18,058 bases of DNA from Candidatus Methylomirabilota bacterium (GTDB lineage: Bacteria > Methylomirabilota > Methylomirabilia > Rokubacteriales > CSP1-6): positions 1 through 18,058 of the forward strand of contig JBKPAK010000223.1 in NCBI GenBank assembly GCA_046726415.1, read 5' to 3'. Each line of letters starts with the position of its first letter. Positions within the stretch are counted from its first letter, which is position 1. The notes under the pieces were generated by a model. That model ran no database searches. It was not told the DNA's origin and saw nothing but the letters and a program-made list of their open reading frames with translations. Below are positions 1 through 18,058 of the stretch, piece by piece. Both the position numbers and the translations under genes were made by a program.

Positions 1-175
1 CTACGACAAGATGGCCAAGGAGTTGGGCGCTCACGGCGAGTTCGTCGAGAAGCCGCACGAGATCCGGCCGGCCCTCGAGCGCGCCTGGGCGTCGGGCAAA
101 CCGTCCGTGGTCAACGTCATCACGGACTACACCGCGCGCGCCACGACGGTGCGCTTCTCGGCCTATACGACGTAA
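1..175 (+). CDS. 3' end of a thiamine diphosphate-dependent enzyme (acetolactate synthase / oxalyl-CoA decarboxylase-like), truncated by the window edge
   Basis: Frame from nt 2 reads [42 protein letters not shown]...YTT, with stop TAA at 173-175. This matches the typical C-terminal pattern of TPP enzymes (Y.KMA..LG..G..V....E...AL.RA..SGKP.VVNV). Confidence 0.8.
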
Positions 176-187
176 CGACGTAACATA

Positions 188-285
188 GTCGGGGGGAACG
201 AGCGCCGTTCCCCCCGACACCCCTGCCGCTCCCTGAGCGACGGCGGGGGAAGCGTTGGCTCCGTCTCCACCAGGCCAGCGGTTCC
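188..285. repeat. Cluster of three GC-rich inverted repeats (REP-like element or bidirectional terminator) between convergent genes
   Basis: Perfect 13-bp stem GTCGGGGGGAACG (188-200) / CGTTCCCCCCGAC (206-218). Second stem CCCCTGCCG (220-228) / CGGCGGGGG (241-249). Third, imperfect stem GGAAGCGTTGGC (248-259) / GCCAGCGGTTCC (274-285). Confidence 0.55.
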
Positions 286-465
286 ATGCCTCAGGCCGCT
301 CCGCCTTCGCCTCCCGCGTTCTCGCACTTCGCCCACGTCCAGAAAGCCGGCGGCCTCGTTCTCCGCGGGTATGAGACGTCGGGGCAGGCGCGGCGGTCGC
401 GGTCGCCCCGGTCGGCACCGGCCCGGAACCCACGAGCTCGACGCTCTAGAGTCTCGGAGCGCGGC

Positions 466-1422: not shown

Positions 1423-1447
1423 CGCGTCGAGGATCCCCTGCCGGGTC

Positions 1448-2407: not shown

Positions 2408-2419
2408 CGGGGGTCAGGA

Positions 2420-2445
2420 GCGGCCGGGCGTCTTCGCCCGGCTGC
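2420..2445 (-). terminator. Intercistronic stem-loop between the binding-protein gene and the first permease gene (mRNA stabiliser or partial terminator)
   Basis: GCGGCCGGGCG-TCTT-CGCCCGGCTGC stem-loop just downstream of the binding-protein stop codon, with no U-tract. Confidence 0.45.
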
Positions 2446-2457
2446 CCGCCGCCACGT

Positions 2458-4254: not shown

Positions 4255-4380
4255 CGGAAGCCTCCGTTCTGGCATAGCCTGGGCTCCGCGCCACCACCTC
4301 GATGGCGAACGCAGGGCCGCCGCGGTCATGAGTCTCGGAAGTGCCTTCTTTCGAACTCGGCGCACGGCGCCGGGGATCCT

Positions 4381-4407
4381 CGCGGGCCGCCCGGAGGGGG
4401 GCTCGCG
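4381..4407 (-). terminator. GC-rich hairpin directly after pdxA
   Basis: CGCGGGCC...GGCTCGCG inverted repeat a few nt downstream of the pdxA stop codon, with no clear U-tract. Confidence 0.3.
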
Positions 4408-4413
4408 ATGCCG

Positions 4414-5442
4414 TCATCCGCGATGCTCCAGCATGCGGACGGCGACGTCGATGGCCTCCACCATGCTCTCCGCGTTGGCGATGCCCTTCCAGGCGCGATC
4501 GAAGGCGGTGCCGTGATCCACGGACACCCGGAGGAAGGGCAGGCCGACGGTGACGTTGACACCGGACAGGCCCGTCCACCGCCGGCTCTTCTCGTCATAG
4601 GAGAAGCCGAGCGTCTTCACGGGAATGTGCCCCTGATCGTGATACATGGCGACGACGATATCAAACTCGCCGCCGCGGGCGCGGGAGAAGAGGGTATCGG
4701 CGGGCAGGGGCCCGTGGACGTCTAGACCCTCGCCGCGAGCGGCTTCGATGGCCGGCGCGATCGCGGTTTTCTCCTCGTCGCCGAAGAGGCCGTCCTCCCC
4801 GGCGTGTGGATTGAGGCCACAGACGGCGATCCGCGGCCGCGGCTGGCCCAACCCCTCCATGGTCCGCTGGGCGAGCCGGATCGTCCGAAGCACTCGCTCG
4901 GGAGTGACCAGATCGGGCACGCGGCGCAGGCTCACGTGGGTGGTGACGTGGATGACGCGCAACTCTACGCCCATGAGCAGCATGGCGTAGTCGCGCGTAT
5001 TGGACACCGCCGCCAGGATCTCCGTATGCCCGGTATGGGGCATCCCGGCCGCGGCCAGGGCCTCCTTGTTGATGGGCGCCGTCACCATGCCGTCAATGGC
5101 CTTGGACATCGCGAGATCGATGGCGCGCAGGATGTACGCATGGGCCGCGCGGCCGGCGGCGGCACTGACTTCTCCCCGTGGCAAGGTCGCCGATTCGACG
5201 TTGGCCAGATCGAGGCACTCCAATGTGCTCTCCCCCCAACGACAATCGGCCACGTCGGTGACGGAGCGCAGGCGGAGGGGTGAGTCGACAAGCCGGAGCG
5301 CCTCGCGCATGACCGAAGCGTCCCCAATCACGACGGGGCGACAGGTCCGTTGGACCTCCGCGCCGGCTGCCGCCCGCGCGATGATCTCGGGGCCCACGCC
5401 TGCCGGGTCGCCCATGGTGATGCCCAGGATCGGTCTGTTCAT
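4414..5442 (-). CDS. pdxA: PdxA-family dehydrogenase (4-hydroxythreonine-4-phosphate or D-threonate-4-phosphate dehydrogenase, PdxA2-type by context)
   Basis: Motifs ITMGDPAGVGPEI, TAPINKEAL, GHTE, GLNPHAGE, AMYHDQGHIP and RVSVDHGTAFD. Overlaps the upstream DUF1537 kinase gene by 4 nt. Confidence 0.95.
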   Translation of the reverse strand: MNRPILGITMGDPAGVGPEIIARAAAGAEVQRTCRPVVIGDASVMREALRLVDSPLRLRSVTDVADCRWGESTLECLDLANVESATLPRGEVSAAAGRAAHAYILRAIDLAMSKAIDGMVTAPINKEALAAAGMPHTGHTEILAAVSNTRDYAMLLMGVELRVIHVTTHVSLRRVPDLVTPERVLRTIRLAQRTMEGLGQPRPRIAVCGLNPHAGEDGLFGDEEKTAIAPAIEAARGEGLDVHGPLPADTLFSRARGGEFDIVVAMYHDQGHIPVKTLGFSYDEKSRRWTGLSGVNVTVGLPFLRVSVDHGTAFDRAWKGIANAESMVEAIDVAVRMLEHRG

Positions 5443-6554
5443 CGGGTTGCCTCCGTAGCCAGCGATACGAAGAGATCATGGTCGCCGAAGCCTCCGGCCT
5501 TGGTCAGCACGGGCAGGGCGGCACGGCCGGGAATGCAAAAGTCGCCGAGGGCGAGGCCCGGGCGAGGGGCGCCGGCGAGGTCGATGCGTTCGGCCCCCAG
5601 GCTTTCGAAGAGCGCGACAGCGGTCTCGCCGCCAGTGGCCACCACGAAATCGACGCCACCGGCCTCAATGCGGCGCCGCGCTTCGGCCGCGAGATTTCTC
5701 GCCACCGCGGCGCGGTCGCCGCAATCCGCTTTCGGCGTGGTGATGACGGAGAGGCGGGCGGCGCGGGCGGCGGCCACCTGGCATCGGGTGACCGGGTGCC
5801 GGCTGCCCGCGACGATCAGGATACGTTGCGCGCGCGGCAGTGGTGCGCACGGCGCGAGTAGACCCCAACGGCGGGCGAGCGCGCCAGCCAGCCCGGCCGA
5901 TCCCACCAGGAGGGGAGCGGTCTCCGCAGTCAGGGCGGCATCCACGAGGGCGTCGAGATCGGCATCGGTCTCCGCCTCGGCCAGCACCACGGAGCCCGCC
6001 AGCCGCGCCAGCCGATCGCGCAGGGATTCCGGCTGCGCTCGCACGCCGTCGAGGGGAATCCAGGCGAGAGGGCGTGCGAATTGGGATCGGAGCAATTCGG
6101 TGACATCGGGCCCGCGCCGCCTCGTCAAGGGCGCCGTCGCCGGAAACTCTGGATCGCCGGCGACGGCCGTGGAGTTCACGGGCGTCCCGTGAACGGTGAG
6201 CACGCGATCCGCGACGACGCGACCCTGTGCCGGGAACGCCGGGCAGAGGAGCGCGGTGGAGAAACCACCGGCCGCCATGACGGCTTCGGTCTCGGCGCCG
6301 ATGCGCCCGCGGAGGGTGGAGTCGATCTTCTTGAAGACGTGGGCGGCGGCGACTCGCGCGGCAGCGGAGCGAACCCTGTCGGCGGCCTCACGGCCGTCGA
6401 GCGCGCGCGACTCCGTGTCGATCACTTGCACCGCGGCCGCCGAAATGGTGCGCGGCCAGATCGTGAATGGCACGGGTCCGGGCCCCGCGAACAGGGCGCC
6501 CGCGTCGCACCCGCCAGTGAGGTCATCGGCGATGATGGCGAGCGCGGTCCTCAC
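5439..6554 (-). CDS. Four-carbon acid sugar kinase, DUF1537 family (DtnK/OtnK-like)
   Basis: Motifs IIADDLTGGCD, DTESR, FKKIDSTLRG, PAFPAQGR, GSAGLA, TGGETA and TKAGGFG. Adjacent to pdxA, as is typical for this family. Confidence 0.92.
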   Translation of the reverse strand: MRTALAIIADDLTGGCDAGALFAGPGPVPFTIWPRTISAAAVQVIDTESRALDGREAADRVRSAAARVAAAHVFKKIDSTLRGRIGAETEAVMAAGGFSTALLCPAFPAQGRVVADRVLTVHGTPVNSTAVAGDPEFPATAPLTRRRGPDVTELLRSQFARPLAWIPLDGVRAQPESLRDRLARLAGSVVLAEAETDADLDALVDAALTAETAPLLVGSAGLAGALARRWGLLAPCAPLPRAQRILIVAGSRHPVTRCQVAAARAARLSVITTPKADCGDRAAVARNLAAEARRRIEAGGVDFVVATGGETAVALFESLGAERIDLAGAPRPGLALGDFCIPGRAALPVLTKAGGFGDHDLFVSLATEATR

Positions 6555-6880
6555 GGGGCAGGCAACTCACCAGTCGGCCTCACGACCTCCGGCGCGGCGC
6601 TTCGCTCGACGCGGACCACGATCCGGGCGAGGAGATTGTGCATATCGAGAAACACCAGGACGACCTGACCGAGAACGATGAACGGGACGCCAGCCAGGAC
6701 GCCCGAGGCGGCCAGGAAAAAGGCGACCAGCGTCACCTCGGCGACGGCGTGACCGGTGATGCTCCCCCAGGGCATGTCGATGACGAGCGCCACGGCAGCG
6801 AGAAAGACGCCACTGGCGGCCAGGGCCAGCCCGACGGCGACCAGGATGCGGGCCCAGAAACGGGTGAAACTGGGATTCAT
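6551..6880 (-). CDS. Small hypothetical membrane protein (109 aa, about 2 TM segments)
   Basis: ATG at 6880 gives MNPSFTRFWARILVAVGLALAASGVFLAAVALVI... with two long hydrophobic stretches. Its stop overlaps the kinase start (GTGA). The upstream extension in the ORF track is antisense to the redoxin gene. Confidence 0.7.
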   Translation of the reverse strand: MNPSFTRFWARILVAVGLALAASGVFLAAVALVIDMPWGSITGHAVAEVTLVAFFLAASGVLAGVPFIVLGQVVLVFLDMHNLLARIVVRVERSAAPEVVRPTGELPAP

Positions 6881-6894
6881 AGCGCCCCCGGGAG

Positions 6895-6942
6895 TTGACA
6901 GCGTCGCCACCGAATATAGTGGTAGTATTCCCGGTGTTTCAA
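6895..6942. promoter_or_regulatory. Compact divergent sigma70-type promoter region
   Basis: AT-rich island in a 64-bp gap. Plus strand has TTGACA (6895-6900) and an extended -10-like TGG-TAGTAT (6920-6928). Minus strand has TTGAAA (6942-6937)-18 nt-TATATT (6918-6913). Confidence 0.5.
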
Positions 6943-6944
6943 GG

Positions 6945-7619
6945 ATGCCTGAGATTCGCGTGGCACGCGCGCTCACCCTCGCCGCATCGCTCGCGCTGGC
7001 TGGCCTCGTCGTCGTGATCACCGCGTTGGTGGCGATGAGACCCGGCACCGCATCGCGGCCGGCGGCGCCGCCGGTCGCCCCGCCCGTGACGGTCGGGCCT
7101 CCTTCGACCGCGCCGGACCCCGGGGTCGTCGCGATGTCGGACCGGCGCCCGCTGAGTGTGGACGAGGCCATGCGAGAGCTCGACCTGATCAAGCCACCCC
7201 GGGCGCGGGGGGTCGAAGACTTCACGCTCCCCACGCCGGGCGGCGGGCAGTTCCGGCTGAGCGCGCATCGGGGCAAGGTCGTCTTCATCAACTTTTGGGC
7301 GACGTGGTGCCCGCCGTGTCGCGAGGAGATGCCGTCGATGGAGCGGCTCTACATGCGCTTGAGGGATCGCCGCTTTGCCATGGTGGCGGTGTCGCTCGAC
7401 GCGAGCTCGCCGGTCGTGACATCGTATCTCGCCGAGGGGCGCTTCACCTTTCCGGTAGCCCTCGATCCCAAGATGGATCTCGCCAACTCCTACGGGGTAC
7501 GGGCCCTGCCCGCCACCTTCATCGTGGACCCGCGTGGAGAGCTGGTGGCCATGGCCCTGGGCCCCCGCAGCTGGGATGGACCCGCCGCCATGGCGCTCAT
7601 GGAAGGCGTGGCTCGCTGA
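6945..7619 (+). CDS. Membrane-anchored TlpA/ResA-family thiol-disulfide oxidoreductase
   Basis: N-terminal TM helix, Pro-rich linker, GKVVFINFWATWCPPCREEMP active site, and cis-Pro motif GVRALPATFIVD. Start taken at ATG 6945 (GTG 6960 is possible). Confidence 0.92.
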   Translation: MPEIRVARALTLAASLALAGLVVVITALVAMRPGTASRPAAPPVAPPVTVGPPSTAPDPGVVAMSDRRPLSVDEAMRELDLIKPPRARGVEDFTLPTPGGGQFRLSAHRGKVVFINFWATWCPPCREEMPSMERLYMRLRDRRFAMVAVSLDASSPVVTSYLAEGRFTFPVALDPKMDLANSYGVRALPATFIVDPRGELVAMALGPRSWDGPAAMALMEGVAR

Positions 7620-7621
7620 CC

Positions 7622-8359
7622 ATGGGCGAGTCGGTCGGGGTGCTCGTCGCCCTCAGCGCGGGCCTCTTTTCCTTTCTCTCGCCCTGCGTGCTCCCGCTCT
7701 TTCCGTCGTATCTCTCGTTCATCACTGGCATGTCGGTTTCGGATATGGCGGGCGACCTGGCTCCCGCCGCTCGTCGCCGCATCCTGCTCAATGCGCTCAC
7801 CTTCGTGCTGGGCTTTTCCGTCATCTTCGTGGCGCTCGGAGCCTCCTTCAGCGCGGTGGGACAGGCGCTGCTCGACCATCGCGACTGGATTCGTCGGGTC
7901 GGCGGCGCCCTCATCGTCGTCTTCGGGCTGTACATTACGGGCCTGCTGAAAGTTGGGCTCTTTGGGCGCACGACGCAGTGGCAACTCAGTGAAAAGCCAG
8001 CCGGATACTTCGGCTCGTTCCTCGTCGGGGTGACGTTTGCCGTGGGATGGACGCCGTGCGTGGGACCAATCCTGGGAGGCATTTTGTCCCTGGCCAGCAC
8101 CACGGAGACCGTTCAGCGCGGCGTGGGACTCCTCGTCGCGTATTCGGCCGGTCTGGGCATCCCATTCCTGCTGTCCGCGCTGGCCCTCCAGTCGTTCCTG
8201 CGCTTCTTCAAGCGCTATCGGCCGTTCATCCCGGTGGTGGAGCGGGCTGCCGGCGTGATCATGATCGTCGTGGGCGTGCTCGTCTTCACCAACTATTACG
8301 TCGTCCTGAACGCCTGGGCGATCTCGCTCACGCCGGACTGGCTGCTGCGCCGTTTGTAG
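7622..8359 (+). CDS. ccdA: Cytochrome c biogenesis protein CcdA (DsbD transmembrane domain)
   Basis: Start ATG 7622, 2 nt after the redoxin stop. Motifs AGLFSFLSPCVLPL and GWTPCVGPILG, about 6 TM segments. Confidence 0.93.
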   Translation: MGESVGVLVALSAGLFSFLSPCVLPLFPSYLSFITGMSVSDMAGDLAPAARRRILLNALTFVLGFSVIFVALGASFSAVGQALLDHRDWIRRVGGALIVVFGLYITGLLKVGLFGRTTQWQLSEKPAGYFGSFLVGVTFAVGWTPCVGPILGGILSLASTTETVQRGVGLLVAYSAGLGIPFLLSALALQSFLRFFKRYRPFIPVVERAAGVIMIVVGVLVFTNYYVVLNAWAISLTPDWLLRRL

Positions 8360-8373
8360 CGCGCTGACCGCCC

Positions 8374-9282
8374 GTGCGCGTCTCTGTCCGCGTTCCGGCA
8401 ACGTCGGCAAACCTCGGTCCCGGCTTCGATGCCCTGGGTCTGGCCCTGGCGCTCTACAACGACGTCGTGGCCACTGCCGCGGACCGCGTGACCGTCCGGA
8501 TCGAAGGGGAGGCCGCAGGGCGGCTTCCGACCGATGAGCGCAACGTCGTGGTGCGGGGCGTGCGACTGGCCTTCGATGAAGCAGGACGGTTCTTCACAGG
8601 GTGCGCGCTCACCTGCGTCAACCGCATTCCGACGGCGCGGGGACTCGGCTCGAGCGCGGCCGCCTGGGTAGGCGGTCTCATGGCCGGGAACGCCCTCCTG
8701 GGGTCGCCGCTCACTCGCGAGGTTCTCCTGAAGCTCGCCGCTCGGGCGGAAGGGCATCCCGACAACGTGGCCGCCGCCCTGTTGGGCGGTCTCACCGTGT
8801 CGTACGGCACCGCCGATGGCGCGCTTGCCATGACGCTTCCCGTGCCCAGCGAGCTTCGGTGGGTGATCCTCGTACCCGAGATCTCGAGCACCACGGCCGA
8901 GGCGCGGGCTGTCCTCCCGGCCTCGGTTCCGCGCGCCGATGCCGTGTTCAACGTCCAGCGGGTGGCCCTGCTGCTGTCCGCACTCCTGGCCGGGCGGCTG
9001 GAAACGCTGAGCGCAGGCATGGACGATCGGCTGCACCAGCCGTACCGCGAGCGGCTATTCCCGTGGATGCCGCGGGTGGCTGCCGCCGCCCGCACCGCGG
9101 GCGCGCTCGGATGTGTCTTGAGCGGGGCCGGGCCGTCGTTGCTCGCGGTGGTCACCCAGGACGCCGACACCGTCGCGCGCGCCATGGAGGCCGCCCTCGC
9201 GGAAGCCGGTGTCAGGGGCTCCGCCCGGGTGCTGAGCGTGGACGTGGCGGGCGCGACCTGCCGCGCCGATGAGCCGCGATGA
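8374..9282 (+). CDS. thrB: Homoserine kinase (GHMP family)
   Basis: Motifs VPATSANLGPGFDALG, IPTARGLGSSAAA, EGHPDNVAAA, DRLHQPYR and LSGAGPS. Confidence 0.95.
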   Translation: MRVSVRVPATSANLGPGFDALGLALALYNDVVATAADRVTVRIEGEAAGRLPTDERNVVVRGVRLAFDEAGRFFTGCALTCVNRIPTARGLGSSAAAWVGGLMAGNALLGSPLTREVLLKLAARAEGHPDNVAAALLGGLTVSYGTADGALAMTLPVPSELRWVILVPEISSTTAEARAVLPASVPRADAVFNVQRVALLLSALLAGRLETLSAGMDDRLHQPYRERLFPWMPRVAAAARTAGALGCVLSGAGPSLLAVVTQDADTVARAMEAALAEAGVRGSARVLSVDVAGATCRADEPR

Positions 9283-10475
9283 CGCCGCCTGTCTCGCCGA
9301 AGGCCCCTCAGGGCGCGCCCTCTGATCGGAAGATCCCTCAGGGCGTGCTCTCTGATCGCGAGCTGGAGATCGCCATCGCGGCCGGATGGATTAGGCCGAG
9401 CCAGCCGATCGAGGATGTTCAAATTCAGCCGGCCAGCCTTGATCTCCGGCTGGGAGCGACTGCCTACCAGCTTCGAGCGAGCTTCTTGCCCTGTGGGAAG
9501 CCCGTTCAGTCTCGGCTTCACCAGCCCGACTATTTGCGCGGAGAACTCGTCAACGACGAGATTCCCCTCCTCCCGGGCGCGACCCTGCAGCCGCACTCGG
9601 TTTACCTCGTGCCCCTCGTGGAATCGCTGGAGCTTCCGCGCTCACTCCGCGGGCGATGCAATCCCAAGAGCACCACCGGGCGCCTCGACATCTTCACGCG
9701 GCTCATCACGGATGGAAGCGAGCGGTTTGACGAGATCCGCGCTGGGTATCGAGGGCCGCTGTACCTTGAGATCGCACCCCAGTCCTTTCCCGTCCGGCTT
9801 CAGGCCGGGGTGTCGCTGAATCAACTCCGACTCCTCAAGGGATCACCATCGGTGTCTGACACCGCGCTGGAACGGCTGTATCGCACCACGCCACTCCTCT
9901 ACTACGACGATGACGACCGCCCGGTGCCTTTCCGCGACGTGACCCTGCGCGATGGACTCGGCATGAGCATCGACCTCTCCGGCCGGCTCACCGATGGCCT
10001 CATAGGCTATCGCGCGCATCCGAACCCACCAGTAGTGGATCTCAGCAAGATCAATGACTACGATCCCGATGACTTCTGGGAGCCAATCAAGCGCCCCAAG
10101 GGCGAGTCCTTCATCCTGGAGGCCAACCGGTTCCACATTCTCGTGTCGAGGGAACGGATCCGGGTTCCCCCCGAATACGCGGCCGAGATGGTGGTCTACG
10201 ACGCCGGCGCCGGGGAAATCCGCACGCATTACGCGGGCTTCTTCGATCCCGGCTTCGGCTTCGGCGACGGTCGTGTGCTGGGCACGAAGGTCGTGATGGA
10301 AGTGAGGGCGAGGGAAGTGCCATTCCTCGTCTACCACGGTCAGACTTTCTTCAAAGTCTGGTTCGAACGGCTGTGCGGCCCGCCCCACCGCGTCTACGGG
10401 GTCGGTCTGGGCTCCTCGTACCAATATCAGGCGCTCACCCTGAGCAAGCAGTTCCGGCGGGGGCGGGGGCGCTGA
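9279..10475 (+). CDS. dcd: dCTP deaminase, long two-domain form
   Basis: Motifs GVLSDRE, IQPASLDLRLG, NPKSTTGRLDIFTR and HYAGFFDPGFG, and C-terminal GSSYQYQALTLSKQF. Overlaps the thrB stop (ATGA). Confidence 0.88.
   Translation: MTPPVSPKAPQGAPSDRKIPQGVLSDRELEIAIAAGWIRPSQPIEDVQIQPASLDLRLGATAYQLRASFLPCGKPVQSRLHQPDYLRGELVNDEIPLLPGATLQPHSVYLVPLVESLELPRSLRGRCNPKSTTGRLDIFTRLITDGSERFDEIRAGYRGPLYLEIAPQSFPVRLQAGVSLNQLRLLKGSPSVSDTALERLYRTTPLLYYDDDDRPVPFRDVTLRDGLGMSIDLSGRLTDGLIGYRAHPNPPVVDLSKINDYDPDDFWEPIKRPKGESFILEANRFHILVSRERIRVPPEYAAEMVVYDAGAGEIRTHYAGFFDPGFGFGDGRVLGTKVVMEVRAREVPFLVYHGQTFFKVWFERLCGPPHRVYGVGLGSSYQYQALTLSKQFRRGRGR
9305..9358 (+). repeat. 30-bp-period imperfect tandem duplication at the 5' end of dcd
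   Basis: CCCTCAGGGCGCGCCCTCTGATCG (9305-9328) versus CCCTCAGGGCGTGCTCTCTGATCG (9335-9358), 22 of 24 identical. Encodes PQGAPSDR and PQGVLSDR. Confidence 0.85.
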
Positions 10476-10491
10476 CACGCCGGCAAAAGCG

Positions 10492-10519
10492 TTGCATGGG
10501 TATGCTCATGCGTTAGAAT
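10492..10519 (+). promoter_or_regulatory. Putative sigma70 promoter of the pup cluster, overlapped by a GCATG-N8-CATGC palindrome
   Basis: TTGCAT (10492-10497)-16 nt-TAGAAT (10514-10519). Palindrome arms at 10494-10498 and 10507-10511. Confidence 0.55.
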
Positions 10520-10568
10520 TACGTCAGGCGACGGGTGTTCCGGACTCGGCACTCGACGGGAGGGTGTG

Positions 10569-10769
10569 ATGGCTGAACAGAAGCGGAAAGAGACGCGGCC
10601 GACCAAGCCTTCGGACAACGGCGACGGCGCGGCAGCTAACCCCGAGGTCGCCAAGAAGGGCAAGAAGATCAAGGAGGACATCGACAAGCTCCTCGACGAG
10701 ATCGACGACATTCTCGAGGAGAACGCCGAGGAGTTCGTGAAGAGCTACGTGCAGCGCGGGGGCGAGTAG
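10569..10769 (+). CDS. pup: Prokaryotic ubiquitin-like protein Pup (C-terminal GGE)
   Basis: 66 aa with a disordered, charged N-terminus, then DIDKLLDEIDDILEENAEEFVKSYVQRGGE. This closely matches the conserved Pup C-terminal half (LLDEIDDVLEENAEDFVRAYVQKGG[Q/E]). RBS GGAGG at 10559-10563. Confidence 0.92.
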   Translation: MAEQKRKETRPTKPSDNGDGAAANPEVAKKGKKIKEDIDKLLDEIDDILEENAEEFVKSYVQRGGE

Positions 10770-10772
10770 GAG

Positions 10773-10985
10773 ATGCCGATCTACGAATACCGCTGCCGTC
10801 ACTGCACTCAGGACTTCGAAAAGTACGTTCACTCGGCGGCCACCGCGGTGGCCTGCCCGGCGTGCGCCAGCAGCAATGTGAGCCGCAAGCTCTCCGTGTT
10901 TGGCCTCCGGAGCGACGGCCGTCCTGTCGCGTCTGCCATGCCGGCCGGCGGTGGATGCTGCGGTGGAGGATGCTCCTGCCACTGA
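10773..10985 (+). CDS. FmdB-family zinc ribbon protein with a Cys/Gly-rich C-terminal tail
   Basis: MPIYEYRCRHC...FE...CPACAS...RKLSVF pattern and tail GGGCCGGGCSCH. Its RBS (AGGAG) overlaps the pup stop codon. Confidence 0.9.
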   Translation: MPIYEYRCRHCTQDFEKYVHSAATAVACPACASSNVSRKLSVFGLRSDGRPVASAMPAGGGCCGGGCSCH

Positions 10986-10997
10986 TCGGTGCGCTCC

Positions 10998-11018
10998 TCG
11001 AACCCCGACCGGGTTCGA
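10998..11018 (+). other. Perfect 8-bp stem-loop between the zinc-ribbon and LysR genes
   Basis: TCGAACCC-CGACC-GGGTTCGA, with no U-tract. Confidence 0.5.
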
Positions 11019-11062
11019 CGCGGCCCGTCGCCTGAGCCCCCGCGTTCCCATCGGTCGGCCAG

Positions 11063-11968
11063 ATGGACCTCCGGCGGCTCGAGATCTTCGCCAAGGTCGC
11101 CGAGCTGGGGAGTTTTTCGCGCGCGGCCGAGTCCCTCTTTCTGACGCAACCCACGGTGTCCGAGCACATCCGGTCGCTGGAGGAAGAGCTGGGAGTCCAG
11201 CTCCTGGATCGACTCGGCCGCGGCACCACGCCGACGCGAGCGGGCCAGCTGCTCTTGGGATACGCCAAGCGCATGTTGGCGCTGGGGCGCGAGGCTCGAC
11301 AAGCCATGGACCAGTTCCAGGGGAGGATGCTGGGCGAGCTGGTGATCGGAGGCAGCACGATCCCCGGCGAGTACGTGCTTCCGGCCCTGGTCGGGCGGTT
11401 CAAGCGCAAGTATCCCGAGGTCTCGATCTGCCTGCTGATCGGCTCAAGCCAGCAGGTGAGCAGCTGGCTCGAGGAAGGACGAGTGGAGGTCGGAGTCGTC
11501 GGGGCACGCCCCACTGGACGCGCGCTGGAGTCGGCCCGGCTCATGGCCGACGAGTTGGTGGTCGTGGTGAACGCCGATCATCCGTGGGCGGCCCACGAGA
11601 CCATCACCCTCGAGGAGCTGAGGGCAGAGCCAATGATCGTCCGCGAGCGAGGGTCCGGCTCGCGAGACGCCCTGGAGCGCGCCCTGGCCAAGGTTGGGCT
11701 AGACCTTGGCGCCTTCCGGGTGGTGGGTGAGATGGGATCGACCCAGGCGGTCAAGCAGGGCGTACGGGCCGGCGTCGGAATTGCGCTGATGTCCGATCGG
11801 GCCGTGGTCGATGAGTGCCGCACGAGGCTCGTGGCGTGTGTGCGGCTTGAGGGGCTGACCATCTCGCGCGATTTCTACCTCGTGACGCATCGAGAGCGAA
11901 GCCGGTCGCCGCTGGCCGTGGCCTTCCTGGAGTTCATCGAATCGGACGTGGTGGATCGGCCATCGTAA
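11063..11968 (+). CDS. LysR-family transcriptional regulator, CysL-like; selenium-metabolism-associated type by context
   Basis: HTH region GSFSRAAESLFLTQPTVSEHIRSLEEELG, plus CysL-like GGSTIPGEYVLP, RERGSGSR and GSTQAVKQGV. Lies 7 nt upstream of the corrected selD start. Confidence 0.92.
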   Translation: MDLRRLEIFAKVAELGSFSRAAESLFLTQPTVSEHIRSLEEELGVQLLDRLGRGTTPTRAGQLLLGYAKRMLALGREARQAMDQFQGRMLGELVIGGSTIPGEYVLPALVGRFKRKYPEVSICLLIGSSQQVSSWLEEGRVEVGVVGARPTGRALESARLMADELVVVVNADHPWAAHETITLEELRAEPMIVRERGSGSRDALERALAKVGLDLGAFRVVGEMGSTQAVKQGVRAGVGIALMSDRAVVDECRTRLVACVRLEGLTISRDFYLVTHRERSRSPLAVAFLEFIESDVVDRPS

Positions 11969-11975
11969 CGACACC

Positions 11976-13034
11976 ATGACTGGCAAGCAGATCCGGCTGA
12001 CCTCATACGCCTCGTGCGCCGGCTGAGCGTCGAAGATGGCTCCTGGAGATCTCCAGGAGGTGCTGGCCGCCCTGAAACCGGCTGACCCGAGAGCTCACGG
12101 CGATCTCCTCGTCGGTCTCGCCCAAGCCGATGATGCCGCCGTCTACCGGATCGCGAAGGACATGGCTATCGTCGAGACGGTCGACTTCTTTCCACCGGTG
12201 GTCGACGACCCCTACGCGTGGGGCGCGGTGGCCGCCGTCAATGCCATGTCGGACGTCTACGCCATGGGCGGCGAGGTGCTCTTCGCGCTGGCCGTGGCGG
12301 GCTTTCCCCGGGATATGCCCAAGGCGATCATCGCGGAGGTGTTTCGCGGGGGTGCCGATAAGGTGGCGGAGGCCGGCGGGATCATCGCAGGGGGCCACAC
12401 CGTCGTCGACAACGAGCCCAAGTATGGTCTCTGCGTGACGGGACGCGTGCACCCCGATCGGGTGATGATCAAGGGCGGCCTCCGGCCCGGCGATCGCCTT
12501 TTCTTGTCCAAGCCTCTCGGGACGGGGGTCATTACGACGGCGGCCAAGGGGGATGCCACCGACGAGGCGACGTTGCAAGGGGCGTTGACCTCCATGCTTC
12601 GCCTGAATCGCGGCGCGGCAACCGTGGCTCTCGAGTGCGGCGCCCGCGGGTCGACCGACATCACTGGTTTCGGCCTGCTCGGTCATCTCGCCGAGATGAT
12701 CGAGGCGTCGGGCGCCGGTGTTGCGATCGAGGCGTCACGGCTGCCTCTGCTGCCAGGGGCACAGAGCTTGGCGGCGGCGGGTCGCTTCAGCGGAGGGATG
12801 GGTCGCAACCGCCAGTATCTAGAGACCGCGCTCGGCCAACGCCTGTCCATCCACGTCGATGTGCCCGGCCCTTTGGTCGGAATCCTGTTCGAGGCGGAGA
12901 CTTCGGGAGGGCTCGTCTTCTCCGTCTCGCCGGATCGCGCCTCCGACGTTGCGCGCGGGGCTAAGGAGCTCGGCGAAGAATTCGCCGAGATCGGCGAGGT
13001 CATCCCGGAGCGCTCAATCCGCGTCGTTTACTGA
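11976..13034 (+). CDS. selD: Selenide, water dikinase (selenophosphate synthetase), selenocysteine-containing, 352 aa with Sec at codon 17
   Basis: ATG 11976 reads MTGKQIRLTSYASCAG-TGA-ASKMAPG, in frame with the 12036 ORF. The TGA sits at the catalytic Cys/Sec position of the RLT...GU..K motif. Downstream motifs DDAAVY, TVDFFPPVVDDPY, NAMSDVYAMGG, GGHT, TDITGFGLLGHL and ETSGGL. Confidence 0.96.
12021..12068 (+). promoter_or_regulatory. Bacterial SECIS-like element directly 3' of the selD UGA
   Basis: Upper stem CTCCTGGA-GATC-TCCAGGAG (12040-12059) with a G-first apical loop about 21 nt after the UGA. A lower stem GGCTGAGC (12021-12028) / GCTGGCC (12062-12068) includes the UGA. Confidence 0.75.
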
Positions 13035-13037
13035 TGA

Positions 13038-13634
13038 GGTGGGGCTCGAGGGCACAATCTCGTCGGGCGGCTGCGGGTCGTCCACAACGTCCTCGCGGGA
13101 AACCTCGGACGCTGGTCTGGGATCAAGGCTCTGCTTTCGCTGGCGCATCCCGGCGAGGCGGGCCAGGCCGCGCGGGCCCTCAGCCGCGTGGGTATTGTCG
13201 AGAAGCTGTGGGCGCGGACGGACGAGCTGTCGGGCGGTCAGCAGCAGCGGGTCGCCATCGCGCGGGTCCTGATCCAGGATCGCGAGGTGATTCTGGCCGA
13301 CGAGCCCGTGTCCTCCGTGGATCCCTCGCTGGCCGTAGCCATCGTGAGCCTCCTGCGCGACCTGTCGCACGAGTCGAACAAGACCCTCCTCATGAACCTG
13401 CACAGCGTGGAGCTGGCCCTCCGCTATTTCCCGCGGATCGTCGCGCTGCGTGACGGATCGGTCCTCTTCGATCAGCGCGCCGATGCCGTGACGTCGGAAC
13501 TGCTCCAGTCGCTGTATGCCGGGCACCATACGACGAGCGACAGCTGGCGGCCATGGAGGACCGCCTCCCGGACCTTGGCCACGCCTGCCACCCGCTTCCC
13601 GGCTTCTCCAAGTAAGTCGCAGCCTTCGCGGTGA
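13038..13634 (+). pseudogene. 5'-truncated PhnC-like ABC ATPase (phosphonate/oxyanion transporter family)
   Basis: From 13053: HNLVGRLRVVHNVLAGNLGRWS...LSGGQQQRVAIAR...ILADEPVSSVDP...MNLHSVELAL. The ABC signature, Walker B and H-loop are present. The start codon, Walker A and Q-loop are absent, and an in-frame stop lies at 13035-13037. Confidence 0.85.
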
Positions 13635-14347
13635 CCTTAGTCGCGTCGCTGCGCGTGGCCGACGTCGATCCCCGCCGTCTGGTCGAGGCCGGGCGCTGGG
13701 TAACGTGGCGCGCTTCGCGGCCGGGGCGTGGCCGCCGGACCTGTCGCCCGGGTTCCTGGGGCTCATGCTGCGGCCGGCGCTGGAGACGATCCAGATTTCC
13801 GTGATGGGAACCGCCATCGCCGTCGCCATCGGCCTTCCTCTGGGACTGCTTGCCACGTCGTCGCTGGTCTGGCGCGGGATCCGGCACGAGCGCACGTCGG
13901 CGGGGCGAGGGGCGGTGGCCGGGTTCGTTCCCTACGCGCTGGCTCGCGCGGTGCTCTCAGTGTTCCGCTCGATTCCGGAGTACGTGTGGGCCTTCATGTT
14001 CGTGCGCGCGGTCGGGTTGGGAGCGTTTCCCGGCGTCCTCGCCCTCGGGGTCGCCTGTGGCGGGATGCTGGGGAAGGTCTATTCGGAGATTCTCGAGGGC
14101 GTCAATCCGCGCCCCCTGGAAGCGCTCCACGCGGGCGGTGCTTCGAAGCTCGGCATTGTGCTCTACGGTCTGATTCCTCAAGCGTGGCCCACCCTGGTTC
14201 GTGGGGGCGGGCGGGCTGGGTCAGCGGATCCATGTGGCCATCAGCCTCTTCCACGAGCACCAGCTGCTCACGCTGATCCTGGCGATCTACGCCATGGTGA
14301 CCCTGGTCGACGCCCTCAGCGCCTACCTGCGGTCGCGGCTGGTCTGA
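13616..14347 (+). pseudogene. Frameshifted, internally deleted PhnE-like ABC permease
   Basis: Three pieces in different frames: VAAFAVTLVASLRVADVDPRRLVEAG (13616-13693); ALGNVARF..WPPDLS..ALETIQIS..RSIPEYVWA..GMLGKVYSEILE..IPQAWPTL (13693-14196); and FVGAGGLGQRI...LVDALSAYLRSRLV* (14198-14347). The conserved segment normally between the last two pieces is missing. Confidence 0.85.
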
Positions 14348-14601
14348 GCGCTCCGACTGCGAAGGACGGCGAGCAATCGCTGCCGCAGCTCGACGGGAAC
14401 GGGCGGGGGAACGGATAGTCGGCGGACGGCCTTCACCGTGGTTCGGAACGTATTCAGGAACGCGACGCACGGAGCGCAGCCGTCGATGTGCCAGTCAATC
14501 AGCTCCTTTGTGGCGTGCGGCAGGCGTCCCTCCACGTAGTCCGTCAGGAGTTCGGCAATCTGCCGACACTCGATGTCTGGCGGTTCCGGGTGCTCGCTCA
14601 T
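14323..14601 (-). CDS. Small zf-HC2 (ZAS, zinc-binding anti-sigma-like) protein, 92 aa
   Basis: From ATG 14601: ...IECRQIAELLTDYVEGRL...HIDGCAPC... with the C-x25-HxxxCxxC motif. No TM segment. Confidence 0.85.
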   Translation of the reverse strand: MSEHPEPPDIECRQIAELLTDYVEGRLPHATKELIDWHIDGCAPCVAFLNTFRTTVKAVRRLSVPPPVPVELRQRLLAVLRSRSAQTSRDRR

Positions 14602-14734
14602 GGCCACCACTATATCCGGATGCTTCGAAGGGGGCCCAAGATTCTCCGGGGCGTTGGACCGACGCCGGTGAGGCCCGGAAATGCGGCCCTCCGCCGGAAG
14701 CTTGGTCTGGCCGGCGGGTCGCAGTCCCACACCT

Positions 14735-14788
14735 CGATCCGGCATGAGCCTTTCGTGAGCGATCCGGCATGAGCCTTTCATGAGCCTT
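14735..14788 (+). repeat. 25-bp tandem duplication built from 11-bp CATGAGCCTTT-like units, abutting the moxR -35 element
   Basis: CGATCCGGCATGAGCCTTTCGTGAGC (14735-14760) and CGATCCGGCATGAGCCTTTCATGAGC (14760-14785). TGAGC cores start at 14745, 14756, 14770 and 14781. Confidence 0.85.
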
Positions 14789-14791
14789 ACG

Positions 14792-14820
14792 TTGACGGAG
14801 TGTCGACCCAGTTTGATAAT
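14792..14820 (+). promoter_or_regulatory. Putative sigma70 promoter of the moxR operon
   Basis: TTGACG (14792-14797)-17 nt-GATAAT (14815-14820). RBS AAGGAG at 14845-14850. Confidence 0.65.
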
Positions 14821-14855
14821 GGCCCAACGGTCGCACGCTCTCAAAAGGAGATGGC

Positions 14856-15869
14856 ATGAGTCACGACGCCCGAGTCCAGGAGTTTGTCACGGCCTTCGGG
14901 GCCCTGCGCGCGGAAGTCGAGAAGGTCATCGTGGGGCACCGTGAGATCATCGACAACGTCCTGGTCGGGATGTTCGCGGGTGGCCACGTCCTGCTGGAGG
15001 GCGTGCCGGGATTGGGGAAGACCCTCCTGGTCAAGACGCTGGCCGAGGGACTCGAGCTGTCGTTCTCGCGCATTCAGTTCACGCCGGACCTGATGCCTGC
15101 CGACATCCTCGGGACGAACATCATCGTCGAGGACGCCGAGGGTCGAAAGCACTTCCAGTTCCAGCACGGGCCGATCTTCGCCCACACCTTGCTGGCCGAC
15201 GAGATCAACCGCGCGACACCTAAGACGCAATCGGCGCTCCTGGAAGGGATGCAGGAGGCATCGGTGACCGTGGGCGGCGTCTCGCGACCGCTGCCCTCAC
15301 CGTTCTTCGTGCTGGCCACCCAGAATCCCATCGAGATGGAGGGGACGTATCCGCTCCCCGAGGCCCAGCTGGACCGGTTCCTGATGAAACTTCGGGTCCG
15401 GTATCCCGCCGTGGAGGAACTGAACGCCATCATCGATCGCACCACACAGGCCCGGACGGCGACCGTCAGCCAGGTCATGACAGGGCCGGCGGTCTTGTCC
15501 TATCGCGAGTTGGTCCGCGAGGTCCCAATCGCGTCCCACGTGCGGGACTTCGCGTCCGCGGTGGTGATGGCCACGCACCCGCAGTCGGAGCATGCTCCGG
15601 ATGTGACCCGGCGCTTCGTCCGCTATGGGGCCAGCCCGCGGGGGGCGCAGGCGATGGTGTTGAGCGCCAAAGTCCGGGCCCTGGCCAGCGGCCGGTACAA
15701 CGTCAGCCTTGAGGATCTCAAGGCGGTCGCGGCGGCCGCGCTTCGGCACCGCATCATCCTCAATTTCGAGGGCGAAGCGGAGGGCATCGACGTCGACAAC
15801 CTCATCGGACAGATCATCGAGACCGCCGAGGTGGCGTCGAGCGCTGGCAAAGAGGCATTTCTGCGCTGA
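14856..15869 (+). CDS. moxR: MoxR-family AAA+ ATPase
   Basis: Motifs HVLLEGVPGLGKT (Walker A), RIQFTPDLMPADI, LLADEINRATPKTQSALLE, ATQNPIEMEGTYPLPEAQLDRF, GASPRG and LRHRI. Confidence 0.95.
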   Translation: MSHDARVQEFVTAFGALRAEVEKVIVGHREIIDNVLVGMFAGGHVLLEGVPGLGKTLLVKTLAEGLELSFSRIQFTPDLMPADILGTNIIVEDAEGRKHFQFQHGPIFAHTLLADEINRATPKTQSALLEGMQEASVTVGGVSRPLPSPFFVLATQNPIEMEGTYPLPEAQLDRFLMKLRVRYPAVEELNAIIDRTTQARTATVSQVMTGPAVLSYRELVREVPIASHVRDFASAVVMATHPQSEHAPDVTRRFVRYGASPRGAQAMVLSAKVRALASGRYNVSLEDLKAVAAAALRHRIILNFEGEAEGIDVDNLIGQIIETAEVASSAGKEAFLR

Positions 15870-15880
15870 GGGGAGAGCCG

Positions 15881-17329
15881 ATGAGCGTCGAGAACCTCGA
15901 CCGACTTGTCCGCCAGGTGGCATCGCAGGTCCGCTGGCGGAGGGCCGAACACTACGGCCTCCGCGGGGCCTTCTATGGCGCGCTGGGGGCCGTCGGCGTG
16001 CTGATCTTCAAGCAGTCGCTGGGTACGCCCGCCATCCCCGCCGCCGGCGCGCTGCTCGTACTCGGCGCGCTCGTGGGCGCGGCGGTGGGCCTCGCCAAGA
16101 AGGTGCCGGTGGCGGATGCAGCGCGCCTGGCGGACCGGGCCTTTGGCCTCGATGACCGAGTGGCCACGGCCCTGGAGTGGGCGAACCGTCCGGATCGGAC
16201 GCCTCTGGTCCAAGCTCTGGTGGTCGACGCTACCGAGCGCACGGGCAGCTTGACCATGCGCCAGATCGTGCGGCGTCGGTCGTCGCGCGAAGCGCGGTTG
16301 CTCGCCGTGCCCGCGGCAGCCGCCGTGGCTCTGGCCCTCGCCCCCGCAGTCCCCGTGCCATCGTTCAAACTGCCCGACCTTTCCGCCAGCCGCGAGGAAG
16401 AGAAGGCGCAGGAGCGGGGGGACGCGGCTACGATGCAGGAGGCATCTCGAGGCCTGGCCAAGGAAGGACTCAAACGGCCCTCATTCGAGGAGCGCGACTT
16501 CGTCCAGCGCGCGGGCACGAGCGGGTCGACCACCGCTGGAGATCTGTCGGCGGTCTTCAAGGACACCTCCTTGGGCAATGCGCGGCCCGACTTCAACAGT
16601 TTCCTCAAGAAGGGGGACGACCGCCTCAAGATGCTGGAGCAGGTGGACCGCCTGCCTGATCTCCAGTCGGACTTCACGAGCAGCCAGTACAAGGTCGTCT
16701 ACCGGCGTGCCAAGGAACTGCGCGGGGGGCTGAGCCCGGATATCTCGCCTCAGAAGCTGAAAGAGTTGCTGGAGGAGATGGAGCGCCTGGGCCGGAAGGG
16801 CGGCAACAGTTGGAGCCCGGACGCCGCCGAGGGCTTGGAGGCCCTCGAAGGTGGACAGACCGACCGCGCCATGCAGGCCATGGAGAAGGCACTCAACAAG
16901 ATGCGCGCCATGGAGGAGCAGGGGCGTTCGGGCAAGAATCTGCGGGGTGGGCGGGAGAGCGACCGCAGTGCCAAGGGGCGCGACCGAGGCCGGGGCGGTG
17001 AGGGTGGACCCGACGAGCAGGATTTCGGAGAGGGCGAGGGGTTGCTCCCCGGGAAGGGCAAGAGCGGTTCCCCGAAGGGCGAGGCCACCCAGCGGCTGCG
17101 CGGCAATCCCTACGATGTCGGCGTCGAAGGGGAGTCGCGCCGAGGCAAGAAGGAGGGCTTTGACACGAACATGGTCGGACGCGGAGGACAGATGCCGTCC
17201 AGACTGCAGTACCTCGGCGTGATCGGGCAGTACCGCAAGATGATGGAGGACACCATCACGCGGGAAGCCATTCCGCGTGACTATCACTCGCAGATCAAGG
17301 ACTACTTCCAGGCGCTGGACGAGCGATAA
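15881..17329 (+). CDS. Hypothetical membrane-anchored coiled-coil/Gly-rich protein of a MoxR operon
   Basis: About 3 N-terminal hydrophobic segments with an LDDRVATALEW motif between them, a charged helical middle, a Gly/Glu/Arg-rich linker, and C-terminal helix EAIPRDYHSQIKDYFQAL. Purine-rich RBS, 11 nt after the moxR stop. Confidence 0.8.
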   Translation: MSVENLDRLVRQVASQVRWRRAEHYGLRGAFYGALGAVGVLIFKQSLGTPAIPAAGALLVLGALVGAAVGLAKKVPVADAARLADRAFGLDDRVATALEWANRPDRTPLVQALVVDATERTGSLTMRQIVRRRSSREARLLAVPAAAAVALALAPAVPVPSFKLPDLSASREEEKAQERGDAATMQEASRGLAKEGLKRPSFEERDFVQRAGTSGSTTAGDLSAVFKDTSLGNARPDFNSFLKKGDDRLKMLEQVDRLPDLQSDFTSSQYKVVYRRAKELRGGLSPDISPQKLKELLEEMERLGRKGGNSWSPDAAEGLEALEGGQTDRAMQAMEKALNKMRAMEEQGRSGKNLRGGRESDRSAKGRDRGRGGEGGPDEQDFGEGEGLLPGKGKSGSPKGEATQRLRGNPYDVGVEGESRRGKKEGFDTNMVGRGGQMPSRLQYLGVIGQYRKMMEDTITREAIPRDYHSQIKDYFQALDER

Positions 17330-17332
17330 AGC

Positions 17333-18058
17333 GTGCCGGCCACCATTCGCCAGCAGTTCTTCAGCTCGGACTTCCTGGCGCAGTTGGAGCGGCTCGCTCT
17401 CGCCTCGCGGCGCTCCTTCCGCGGCCGCGTCAAGGGCGAGCGCCGGAGTCCCCGCAAGGGTCAGAGCGTCGAGTTCTCCGACTATCGCGCCTACGGCGTG
17501 GGCGACGACCTTCGCTACGTCGATTGGAACATCTACGGCCGCACCGACCGCCTGCACGTCAAGCTCTTCGTCGACGAGGAGGACCTGTGCGTGCATCTGC
17601 TCATCGACGCCTCGGCGTCCATGAGCTTTGGCCGGCCCTCAAAGCTCGAGTACGGGACGCGTCTGGCTTCCGCCCTGGGGTTCATCGGCCTGGTGAATCT
17701 GGAGCGGGTCGGGGTCGGGATCCTGCGCGAGCAGGTCACCGAGGGGTGGGCCCCCGTGCGCGGACGCAATCAGTTCATGCCCCTCGCCGGCTTCCTGTCC
17801 GGCGTGCAGGCGAGCGGGGGCACGAGCCTCAACGCCGGGCTCGCGAACTACGCGGCGCGCGGTCGGGAACCGGGAATCGCGGTAGTCCTCTCGGATTTCC
17901 TCGATCCCGGCGGCTACGAAGCAGGGCTGCGAGCCCTGCTCGAGCATCGCTTCGAGATCCACGTGATCCACCTGCTCGATCCGGGGGAAATGAATCCCGA
18001 CATCGGGGGGGATCTTCGCCTCATCGACAGCGAGACGGGAGAGGTGCGTGAGCTGACG
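17333..18058 (+). CDS. DUF58 (VWA-like) protein, truncated by the window edge and absent from the ORF track
   Basis: GTG 17333 reads MPATIRQQFFSSDFLAQLERL...GERRSPRKGQSVEFSDYRAYGVGDDLRYVDWNIYGRTDRLHVKLF...LLIDASASMSFG...VVLSDFLD, open to the window end. Confidence 0.92.
   Translation, partial: MPATIRQQFFSSDFLAQLERLALASRRSFRGRVKGERRSPRKGQSVEFSDYRAYGVGDDLRYVDWNIYGRTDRLHVKLFVDEEDLCVHLLIDASASMSFGRPSKLEYGTRLASALGFIGLVNLERVGVGILREQVTEGWAPVRGRNQFMPLAGFLSGVQASGGTSLNAGLANYAARGREPGIAVVLSDFLDPGGYEAGLRALLEHRFEIHVIHLLDPGEMNPDIGGDLRLIDSETGEVRELT

Follow-up and report, generated by a model that had tools for sequence, protein, structure and literature searches.

Introduction

To our knowledge, bacteria have a single analogue of ubiquitin tagging, pupylation, nearly all knowledge of which comes from Actinobacteria. 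There the tag gene pup lies between dop and prcB. Here we describe a pup gene in an 18,058-nucleotide (nt) stretch of DNA from a Candidatus Methylomirabilota bacterium of the order Rokubacteriales (assembly GCA_046726415.1, contig JBKPAK010000223.1, positions 1 to 18,058 of the forward strand), which was analyzed as a whole and is called the window below. In it, pup is followed by a gene for a small zinc-ribbon protein of the FmdB/Ruc superfamily (znr), by a LysR-type regulator gene (lysR), by a selD gene with a selenocysteine (Sec) codon and by a transporter remnant. The robust conserved core of this region is the pup–znr pair, which was found phylum-wide and, in some families, within the proteasome cluster; this pairing is what is new here, and no literature report on pupylation in Rokubacteria was found.

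Described systems also exist for the neighbors of pup. For the zinc ribbon, it is Ruc (Rv0991c), which we take to be a member of TIGR02605/FmdB. According to the accessible part of the paper on it, Ruc binds one zinc via four cysteines, has a disordered C-terminal half and turns into a holdase upon oxidation; its heat induction needs the Pup-proteasome system of the host, the genes of its family co-occur with those of DnaK, ClpB, HrcA, GroEL and FtsH, and that part reports no Pup or proteasome neighborhood for Ruc genes (PMC7448276). The same paper is the only one found to join FmdB-type zinc ribbons to Pup, its supplements, which possibly hold neighborhood tables, lying outside the search. 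For the regulator, the accessible part of a 2015 paper describes the LysR_Se subfamily beside selA, selB or selD (PMC5322559). An earlier note, made from the sequence of the window alone, had proposed that an orphan Pup heads an apparent selenium operon. The cluster proved to be real and conserved and its gene calls right, and the proposed selenium link was not supported.

Results

The pup gene of the window is paired with a zinc-ribbon gene across families of the phylum

The source genome amounts to 7.6 Mb in 352 contigs and is an estimated 98% complete, with the window as its contig C223. Profile searches using Pfam and TIGR/NCBIfam models were scored against the curated cut-offs. Gene neighborhoods were compared among 80 named loci retrieved with the Pup protein, of which only those with enough flank were counted, and the wider samples comprised 61 related genomes and 201 genomes from the phylum. 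The genome-wide counts (pup, Pup_ligase, pup–znr, the riboswitch and the search around arc in family f8) include the unpublished genomes G011, G025, G135 and G173, and the conclusions were unchanged without them.

The pup gene lies on the plus strand at 10566–10769, with its likely start at ATG 10569, and its product scored 82 bits with PF05639 (cut-off 27) and 62.9 bits with TIGR03687 (cut-off 41.45). Only 3 nt past its stop codon starts znr (10773–10985), encoding a protein of 70 amino acids (aa) that scored 51.7 bits with both PF09723 (cut-off 34.4) and TIGR02605 (cut-off 31.3) and carries four cysteines, C8, C11, C28 and C31, ahead of a Gly/Cys-rich tail. These four cysteines were invariant in 34/34 zinc-ribbon sequences, with 16 residues between the two CxxC pairs. 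The tail varies between sequences, with Gly, Ser, Ala and Cys as its frequent residues; it is Gly/Cys-rich in Rokubacteriales, and in other families it is shorter and holds one or two cysteines. A profile search of the PDB using the zinc-ribbon alignment returned generic zinc-finger or zinc-ribbon matches only.

The znr gene was present in 130 of the 144 loci with a pup match, mostly at a gap of 0–6 nt, and adjoined pup in 76 of the 79 named loci that could be counted. The pair was also found in wholly different surroundings. It stands alone in family f7 (the five loci L140, L141, L146, L174 and L175) and in family f13 (L136/L172), and in family f11 it opens a proteasome cluster read from one strand, pup-znr-arc-dop-prcB-prcA-pafA (L142 and L143), or its first part, pup-znr-arc (L176–L178); one further f11 locus (L173) shows pup-znr and no arc match on its 5.1-kb contig. 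In family f12 (L144) the order is znr-arc-dop-pup-prcB-prcA-pafA, with znr beside arc and pup in the textbook position.

Four TIGR02605 genes were found in the source genome. In a tree, the zinc ribbons linked to Pup or arc, drawn from six families, formed one group that excludes the other three FmdB paralogs of the source genome; its support of 89/86 is not decisive in view of the few columns. The three paralogs are located at C281:7692–7841, C211:696–830 and C17:1024–1173, and that on C281, a 130-aa protein with a Ser/Thr/Lys-rich tail, looks closest of the four to the characterized Ruc architecture. Orthology of the pup-linked znr to Ruc was thus not found, since it falls in a tree group of its own and the C281 paralog looks more Ruc-like, Rv0991c itself having been compared by description only.

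Proteins in which Pup is part of a longer chain were inspected as well. Thirteen of 14 such proteins were N-terminally extended or were unrelated fusions, and the remaining candidate, P0014, which reads as a pup-znr-lysR fusion, contains garbled stretches that point to a frameshifted assembly.

Contigs from four RNA-library runs of three studies were found to span the 3′-end of pup into the 5′-end of znr of relatives, and RNA contigs with 0 or 1 mismatch covered parts of lysR and selD. Most pieces from these runs come from many organisms, GGQ-type relatives among them, and represent the conserved C-terminal region of Pup. No contig joined znr to lysR in the four runs (shares 0.05–0.09), in which uncovered stretches carry no weight. 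The RNA contigs therefore give a weak hint that pup and znr are co-transcribed.

Upstream of pup, a promoter-like element at 10492–10519 consists of TTGCAT (10492–10497), a 16-nt spacer and TAGAAT (10514–10519). A TAGAAT-like −10 box was present in 55 of the 115 distinct upstream regions of pup in relatives, and the full pattern TTGM-N16-18-TAnAAT in 15 of them. A consensus promoter scan of 10300–13300 returned no promoter-like site, this element included, so that the clear promoter formerly ascribed to pup is backed by the −10 box of relatives and not by the scan. Farther upstream, dcd occupies 9279–10475 on the same strand.

The principal pup is accompanied by a proteasome locus on another contig

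The window contains no dop, pafA, arc or prcAB gene in the profile searches, as the earlier note had observed, and pup is not adjacent to dop, pafA or prcB. The missing genes were located on contig C90, where arc (TIGR03689, 748 bits), dop (TIGR03688, 617.5 bits, cut-off 492.3), prcB and prcA lie back to back at 10816–16016 (locus L008), with no pup between dop and prcB. The dop gene scored below the cut-off of the PafA model, and a genome-wide profile search found it to be the single Pup_ligase-family gene of the source genome. Contig C90 ends 220 nt past prcA with 15 nt that encode MKRRI, the N-terminus of PafA in the same-genus genome G002, in which pafA follows prcA. Because the end of C90 matches the first five codons of this PafA, pafA appears to be cut by the assembly and not absent, and the whole-genome search taken by itself would mislead. 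The Pup of the window is therefore no orphan, and a PafA-type ligase is apparently encoded in the genome.

The relatives present the same picture. At least one Pup_ligase match was obtained in 53/61 related genomes, most of which have two; typically, a dop-type and a pafA-type gene lie ~1.7 kb apart, a distance that has room for prcB and prcA only and therefore none for pup. The pup gene itself was present in 57/61 relatives and in 181/201 genomes from the phylum. The pup of the window is the principal, phylum-wide copy, and neither an orphan nor a dedicated paralog.

The Pup of the window ends in GGE, i.e. the GG[EQ] end suited to ligation, and a GGE-ending Pup requires no deamidation ahead of ligation. 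In an alignment of 35 sequences, the C-terminal half of Pup was invariant and the last residue was E or Q depending on the relative, with GGQ in 17/34 and GGE in 17/34 of the main-type sequences; the 35th row, a second Pup copy of the source genome described below, is GGE. Even close relatives thus differ in this residue, and whether Dop must deamidate Pup changes often within the order.

A further arrangement was noted at 1916–8198 of locus L105 (CAZPDF010000006.1, labelled Candidatus Saccharibacteria), which encodes arc (745 bits), a 694-aa Dop-like protein, pup and a 516-aa PafA-like protein. Its two ligase-family genes scored 184 and 250 bits, far under the curated cut-offs, and no prcB or prcA was found within the 12 kb examined. 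L105 holds a divergent Pup system. Its arc is 84% identical to that of the Rokubacteria source genome, which suggests that the taxon label of this contig may be wrong.

The selenium genes look like an ordinary module, with a decayed putative importer

All genes that the earlier note had read in this region, namely pup, the Cys-rich zinc ribbon, lysR, Sec-selD and the transporter remnant, were recovered by profile scores and tblastn at the positions it gave. Direct reading of the sequence also bore out their order on the plus strand, in which dcd, pup, znr, lysR, selD and the remnant are all co-oriented, and the gaps of 3 nt between pup and znr, 77 nt between znr and lysR and 7 nt between lysR and selD.

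The lysR gene (11063–11968) scored 307.6 bits with NF040786, LysR_Sec_metab (cut-off 250), and is followed by selD (11976–13034; TIGR00476, 341.8 bits), the only selD above the cut-off in the source genome. Its reading frame contains a TGA at 12024–12026, a codon that presumably corresponds to the catalytic Cys/Sec position of E. coli SelD. TGA was found at the same codon, with conserved flanks, in 87/87 relatives examined. Contig C313 carries selA (591.9 bits), selB (374.2 bits) and tRNA-Sec together. Past the UGA, after 14 nt, an 8-bp hairpin begins (12040–12059) that resembles a selenocysteine insertion sequence (SECIS). Its stem nucleotides were near-invariant in 68 distinct sequences of relatives, in which the neighboring codons vary synonymously, and the fold energy of the region was no better than that of shuffles (z −0.27); the conserved hairpin fits a bacterial SECIS. 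An Rfam scan of the window matched no family. Judged by these features, the selenium part appears ordinary and functional.

Downstream of selD lies what is left of an ATP-binding cassette (ABC) transporter. A PhnC-type ATPase remnant occupies 13053–13634, in which residues 88–246 of a 274-aa relative were matched by tblastn at 13053–13529; the N-terminal ~87 residues are lost and with them the Walker A region, and TIGR02315 aligned over positions 134–242 of 243. A PhnE-type permease remnant follows at 13702–14335, with residues 51–216 at 13702–14199 and, after a frameshift near 14198, residues 235–280 at 14198–14335. It is N-terminally truncated and scored 128 bits with TIGR01097 (cut-off 216.7) over profile positions 35–185 of 252. 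The substrate-binding gene of this putative selenate transporter is absent from the window locus; relatives such as L064 keep the transporter genes intact, and first among these is the gene of a putative selenate-binding protein (TIGR04553, 334 bits, cut-off 250).

In the rest of the window (14323–18058), a minus-strand zf-HC2 anti-sigma-like gene is followed by moxR (AAA_3, 208.9 bits), a 482-aa open reading frame (ORF) without a Pfam match and a DUF58 gene. The order of this MoxR–DUF58 set is kept in many relatives.

The selenium genes are conserved beside pup no more than unrelated genes

The survey of relatives found the gene order to be conserved, with lysR kept in 71/77 and selD in 55/74 named loci, and the arrangement is therefore not a one-off chance rearrangement, which the earlier note had allowed for. 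The unrelated flank genes, which served as controls, were kept in order as well: upstream, the GHMP kinase gene in 58/61 and dsbD in 47/56, as often as selD or more; downstream, the zf-HC2 anti-sigma gene in 41/56 and moxR in 31/56. Because collinearity thus extends over the entire region in this order of bacteria, the conservation of the selenium genes beside pup carries no specific functional signal.

Relatives in which the two parts are separated were also found. The same-genus genome G002 (L151) shows dsbD-GHMP-dcd-pup-znr, then lysR fragments only, and then zf-HC2-moxR, and its selD, which is without the TGA, lies on another contig. The distance between selD and pup is 0.55 Mb in G046 and 0.42 Mb in G048 (both family f4) and 3.2 Mb in G195 (f11), and in G154 (f12) selD is on a contig other than that of pup. 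Thus selD was unlinked from pup in all five other genomes checked, and within ~6 kb of these unlinked selD genes neither znr, lysR nor a selenate-binding gene was present (5/5). In the L095-type clade of f4, an ORF of 1245 aa with POR and DUF6537 domains stands between znr and the LysR_Se gene, and no selD match was found in the available flank, which ends ~1.3 kb past lysR. This large ORF resembles indolepyruvate-ferredoxin-oxidoreductase; the arrangement lies at 6278–10941 of L095, with similar loci in L088, L091, L115–L117 and L148–L150.

The znr–lysR spacer varied from 3 to 164 nt across loci. A GC-rich hairpin with a T-rich tail was present in 30 of the 68 distinct spacer sequences of relatives, and a promoter box of the type TAGACA-N16-19-TATACT, placed a few bases ahead of the lysR start, in 11 of 68. 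In the window, an 8-bp hairpin at 10998–11018, which the earlier note had considered as a possible transcript end, does exist, but a T tail is lacking and its fold is not superior to that of shuffled sequences (z −0.77). The terminator scan of 10300–13300 returned one terminator-like site, inside selD. A transcript end followed by a separate lysR promoter thus has its motifs among the relatives and none in the window spacer. The transcriptional coupling of pup–znr to lysR–selD therefore seems to differ between lineages. In spacers such as those of L072, L076, L107 and L114, boxes of the type TAGACA- or TTTACA-N17-TATACT end ~7–10 nt ahead of the lysR start codon, which suggests leaderless or near-leaderless lysR mRNAs in lineages of these types.

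A second pup copy lies downstream of a fluoride riboswitch

The source genome has a second pup (pup2) on contig C193 (L009), at 1910–2113. Its product ends in GGE as noted above, and a fluoride riboswitch (RF01734, C193 1792–1860, 50.3 bits, cut-off 34) precedes the gene by 50 nt, with a hairpin and a T run in between. The operon (C193 1792–6974) continues with genes for a Cys-rich DUF6062 protein, a Na+/H+ exchanger, a USP protein, CrcB, a DUF190 protein and a dynamin-like GTPase. The Na+/H+ exchanger, USP, CrcB and DUF190 are typical members of the fluoride regulon. Among 33 RF01734 matches in the 61 relatives, eight lie 49–170 nt upstream of a pup gene, and the order pup2-DUF6062-exchanger-USP was the same in four of the genomes concerned (L204–L207). 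The suggestion of a dedicated Pup paralog in the earlier note thus holds for this copy, in a fluoride and not a selenium setting, and fails for the pup of the window. No paper pairing a fluoride riboswitch with a prokaryotic ubiquitin-like protein was found, and pup2 offers a clean, testable example of a Pup gene whose expression would follow a defined chemical signal.

Discussion

The explanation that we favor, and consider on the whole probable, is that two units stand side by side by descent, a pup–zinc-ribbon proteostasis unit and an ordinary LysR_Se–selD selenium module, and that they do not make up one selenium operon. In the first unit, the main Pup with its GGE end would be ligated by PafA and read by the ARC–20S proteasome, both assigned to contig C90. 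The pup gene of Methylomirabilota/Rokubacteria seems to have left the position between dop and prcB and to travel with the zinc-ribbon gene, and, because of the gaps of 0–6 nt, the two genes would most likely yield a bicistronic, possibly translationally coupled message. From such a message the cell would obtain both the tag and a redox-sensitive chaperone or adaptor that serves the ARC-proteasome pathway. The znr protein would then be a proteostasis partner of the Pup-proteasome, possibly in physical or functional contact with Pup, acting as a redox-sensing chaperone or adaptor, or it might be a substrate or regulator of the system; by analogy with Ruc, it may bind zinc and become a holdase upon oxidation. 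The second unit would comprise LysR_Se ahead of Sec-SelD and then the decayed putative selenate ABC importer. In the source strain, the two units would be independent of each other.

Several observations weigh against this explanation. The pup–znr pairing is not universal in the phylum, because the canonical dop-pup-prcB-prcA-pafA loci of family f8 (L145, L181 and L182) have no znr beside pup; nor was znr found upstream of arc in the f8 arc loci with upstream flank (n=3). No Pup–zinc-ribbon fusion was present among the 14 longer Pup-containing proteins. Contigs from RNA libraries, in which DNA may be present, cannot show a single transcript, and the chaperone activity of Ruc is not simply transferable to znr, because the most Ruc-like gene of the genome is another paralog, that on C281. 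As for the separation of the units, pup-znr-lysR-selD was contiguous in 50 of the 74 named loci, and f4 keeps a LysR_Se gene (NF040786, 300 bits) downstream of pup–znr though selD is 0.4–0.55 Mb away. The znr–lysR spacer was ≤35 nt in 25 of the 68 distinct sequences, a length at which a terminator and a promoter would not fit in between, and therefore the four genes are probably one transcript there; the 77-nt spacer of the window contains neither a T-tailed terminator nor a promoter-like box.

Part of this evidence would equally serve a reading in which pup-znr-lysR-selD is one operon with a functional link between pupylation and selenium, Pup tagging, for example, SelD, the Cys-rich zinc ribbon or selenium-damaged proteins. 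The co-oriented genes with their gaps of 3, 77 and 7 nt, the contiguous loci, the short spacers of relatives and the lack of a T-tailed terminator in the window would all be expected from it, as would the four to five extra cysteines in the zinc-ribbon tail of Rokubacteriales and the LysR_Se gene still near pup–znr in f4; the second pup, wired to a fluoride operon, indicates that element-specific Pup wiring occurs in the lineage. We nevertheless regard this reading, which is that of the earlier note, as quite improbable, for the unrelated flank genes are equally syntenic, G002 lost lysR–selD at the site and kept pup–znr, and selD is apart from pup in 5/5 other genomes. Moreover, the Cys-rich tail also occurs in f4, where selD is not adjacent, terminator-like hairpins are present in 30/68 spacers, and in f11 and f12 pup–znr joins the arc–dop locus and not selenium genes. 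The zinc ribbon could instead be part of the selenium module and, for instance, carry selenide or a metal to SelD, its closeness to pup being an accident. That idea is very unlikely: znr stays with pup or arc in f4, f7, f11, f12 and f13, with selD distant or on another contig, no znr was found within ~6 kb of selD in the five other genomes, and the gap between pup and znr is 0–6 nt in most loci, compared with 3–164 nt between znr and lysR. In its favor are the Gly/Cys-rich tail that ends CC...C.CH and the place of znr between pup and lysR–selD in most loci of family f1.

The objection can also be carried further, by taking all of the synteny as neutral, that of pup and znr included, so that the zinc ribbon would have no functional tie to the Pup-proteasome. 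The order of many unrelated genes is indeed conserved across the order Rokubacteriales, the canonical f8 loci are without znr, and none of the 14 longer Pup proteins is a fusion with it. What such neutrality fits poorly is the persistence of the pair through wholly changed surroundings (dcd in Rokubacteriales, arc in f11, alone in f7 and f13), the f12 locus, in which znr adjoins arc and pup keeps its canonical position, and the very short or zero gaps in most of the 130 loci; we hold it to be unlikely.

With two adjacent units as the favored explanation, a whole soil phylum is seen in which pup has parted from the genes of its enzymes and joined a conserved zinc-ribbon gene, and the pairing offers a possible extra player of the pathway and a concrete small protein to test. 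Tentatively, and with a chance that we place clearly below even, the zinc ribbon may be a so far unrecognized component of Pup tagging, a redox-sensing chaperone or adaptor that is produced along with Pup and hands clients to PafA/ARC or controls the availability of Pup, with the Pup copies wired to element-specific stress circuits, one by a fluoride riboswitch and the main one with LysR_Se–selD where the spacer is a few bases. The region also calls for caution with synteny in slowly rearranging lineages, since the idea of a pupylation–selenium link rests on conservation that is common to unrelated flank genes.

Compared with the described systems, each part of the locus combines known and differing features. 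Like the LysR_Se/HrsM–selD module (NF040786, TIGR04553; accessible part of PMC5322559), the window has LysR_Se directly upstream of selD; relatives add the TIGR04553 binding protein and PhnC- and PhnE-type partners, of which the source strain retains only a remnant, and the main text of PMC5322559, its supplements being outside our view, gives neither ubiquitin-like proteins nor zinc ribbons as neighbors. With the operons of the fluoride riboswitch (crcB motif), the C193 operon shares RF01734, the Na+/H+ exchanger, USP, CrcB and DUF190; it differs from them in that its first gene is a Pup paralog, followed by the Cys-rich DUF6062 protein. The znr protein shares with Ruc, as far as the accessible part of PMC7448276 describes it, an N-terminal domain of ~50 residues with two CxxC pairs and a variable low-complexity tail behind it, and the N-terminal motif MPxYxYxCxxC is common to znr and the primer sequences given there. 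Between the Cys pairs, however, znr has 16 residues and Ruc, in the scheme of that paper, 17; the tail is Gly/Cys-rich in znr and Ser-rich in Ruc, and the neighbors are pup and, in some families, the proteasome genes for znr but DnaK, ClpB, HrcA, GroEL and FtsH for Ruc (PMC7448276). Finally, the protein families known from the Pup-proteasome system of Actinobacteria (arc/mpa, dop, pup, prcB, prcA and pafA) are represented in the source genome, pafA apparently by a gene cut at the end of C90, with the GG[EQ] end of Pup and the clustered arc-dop-prcB-prcA(-pafA). It differs from that system in that pup does not lie between dop and prcB and has no Dop or PafA gene as neighbor, is paired with a zinc ribbon, and is accompanied in the genome by a second copy.

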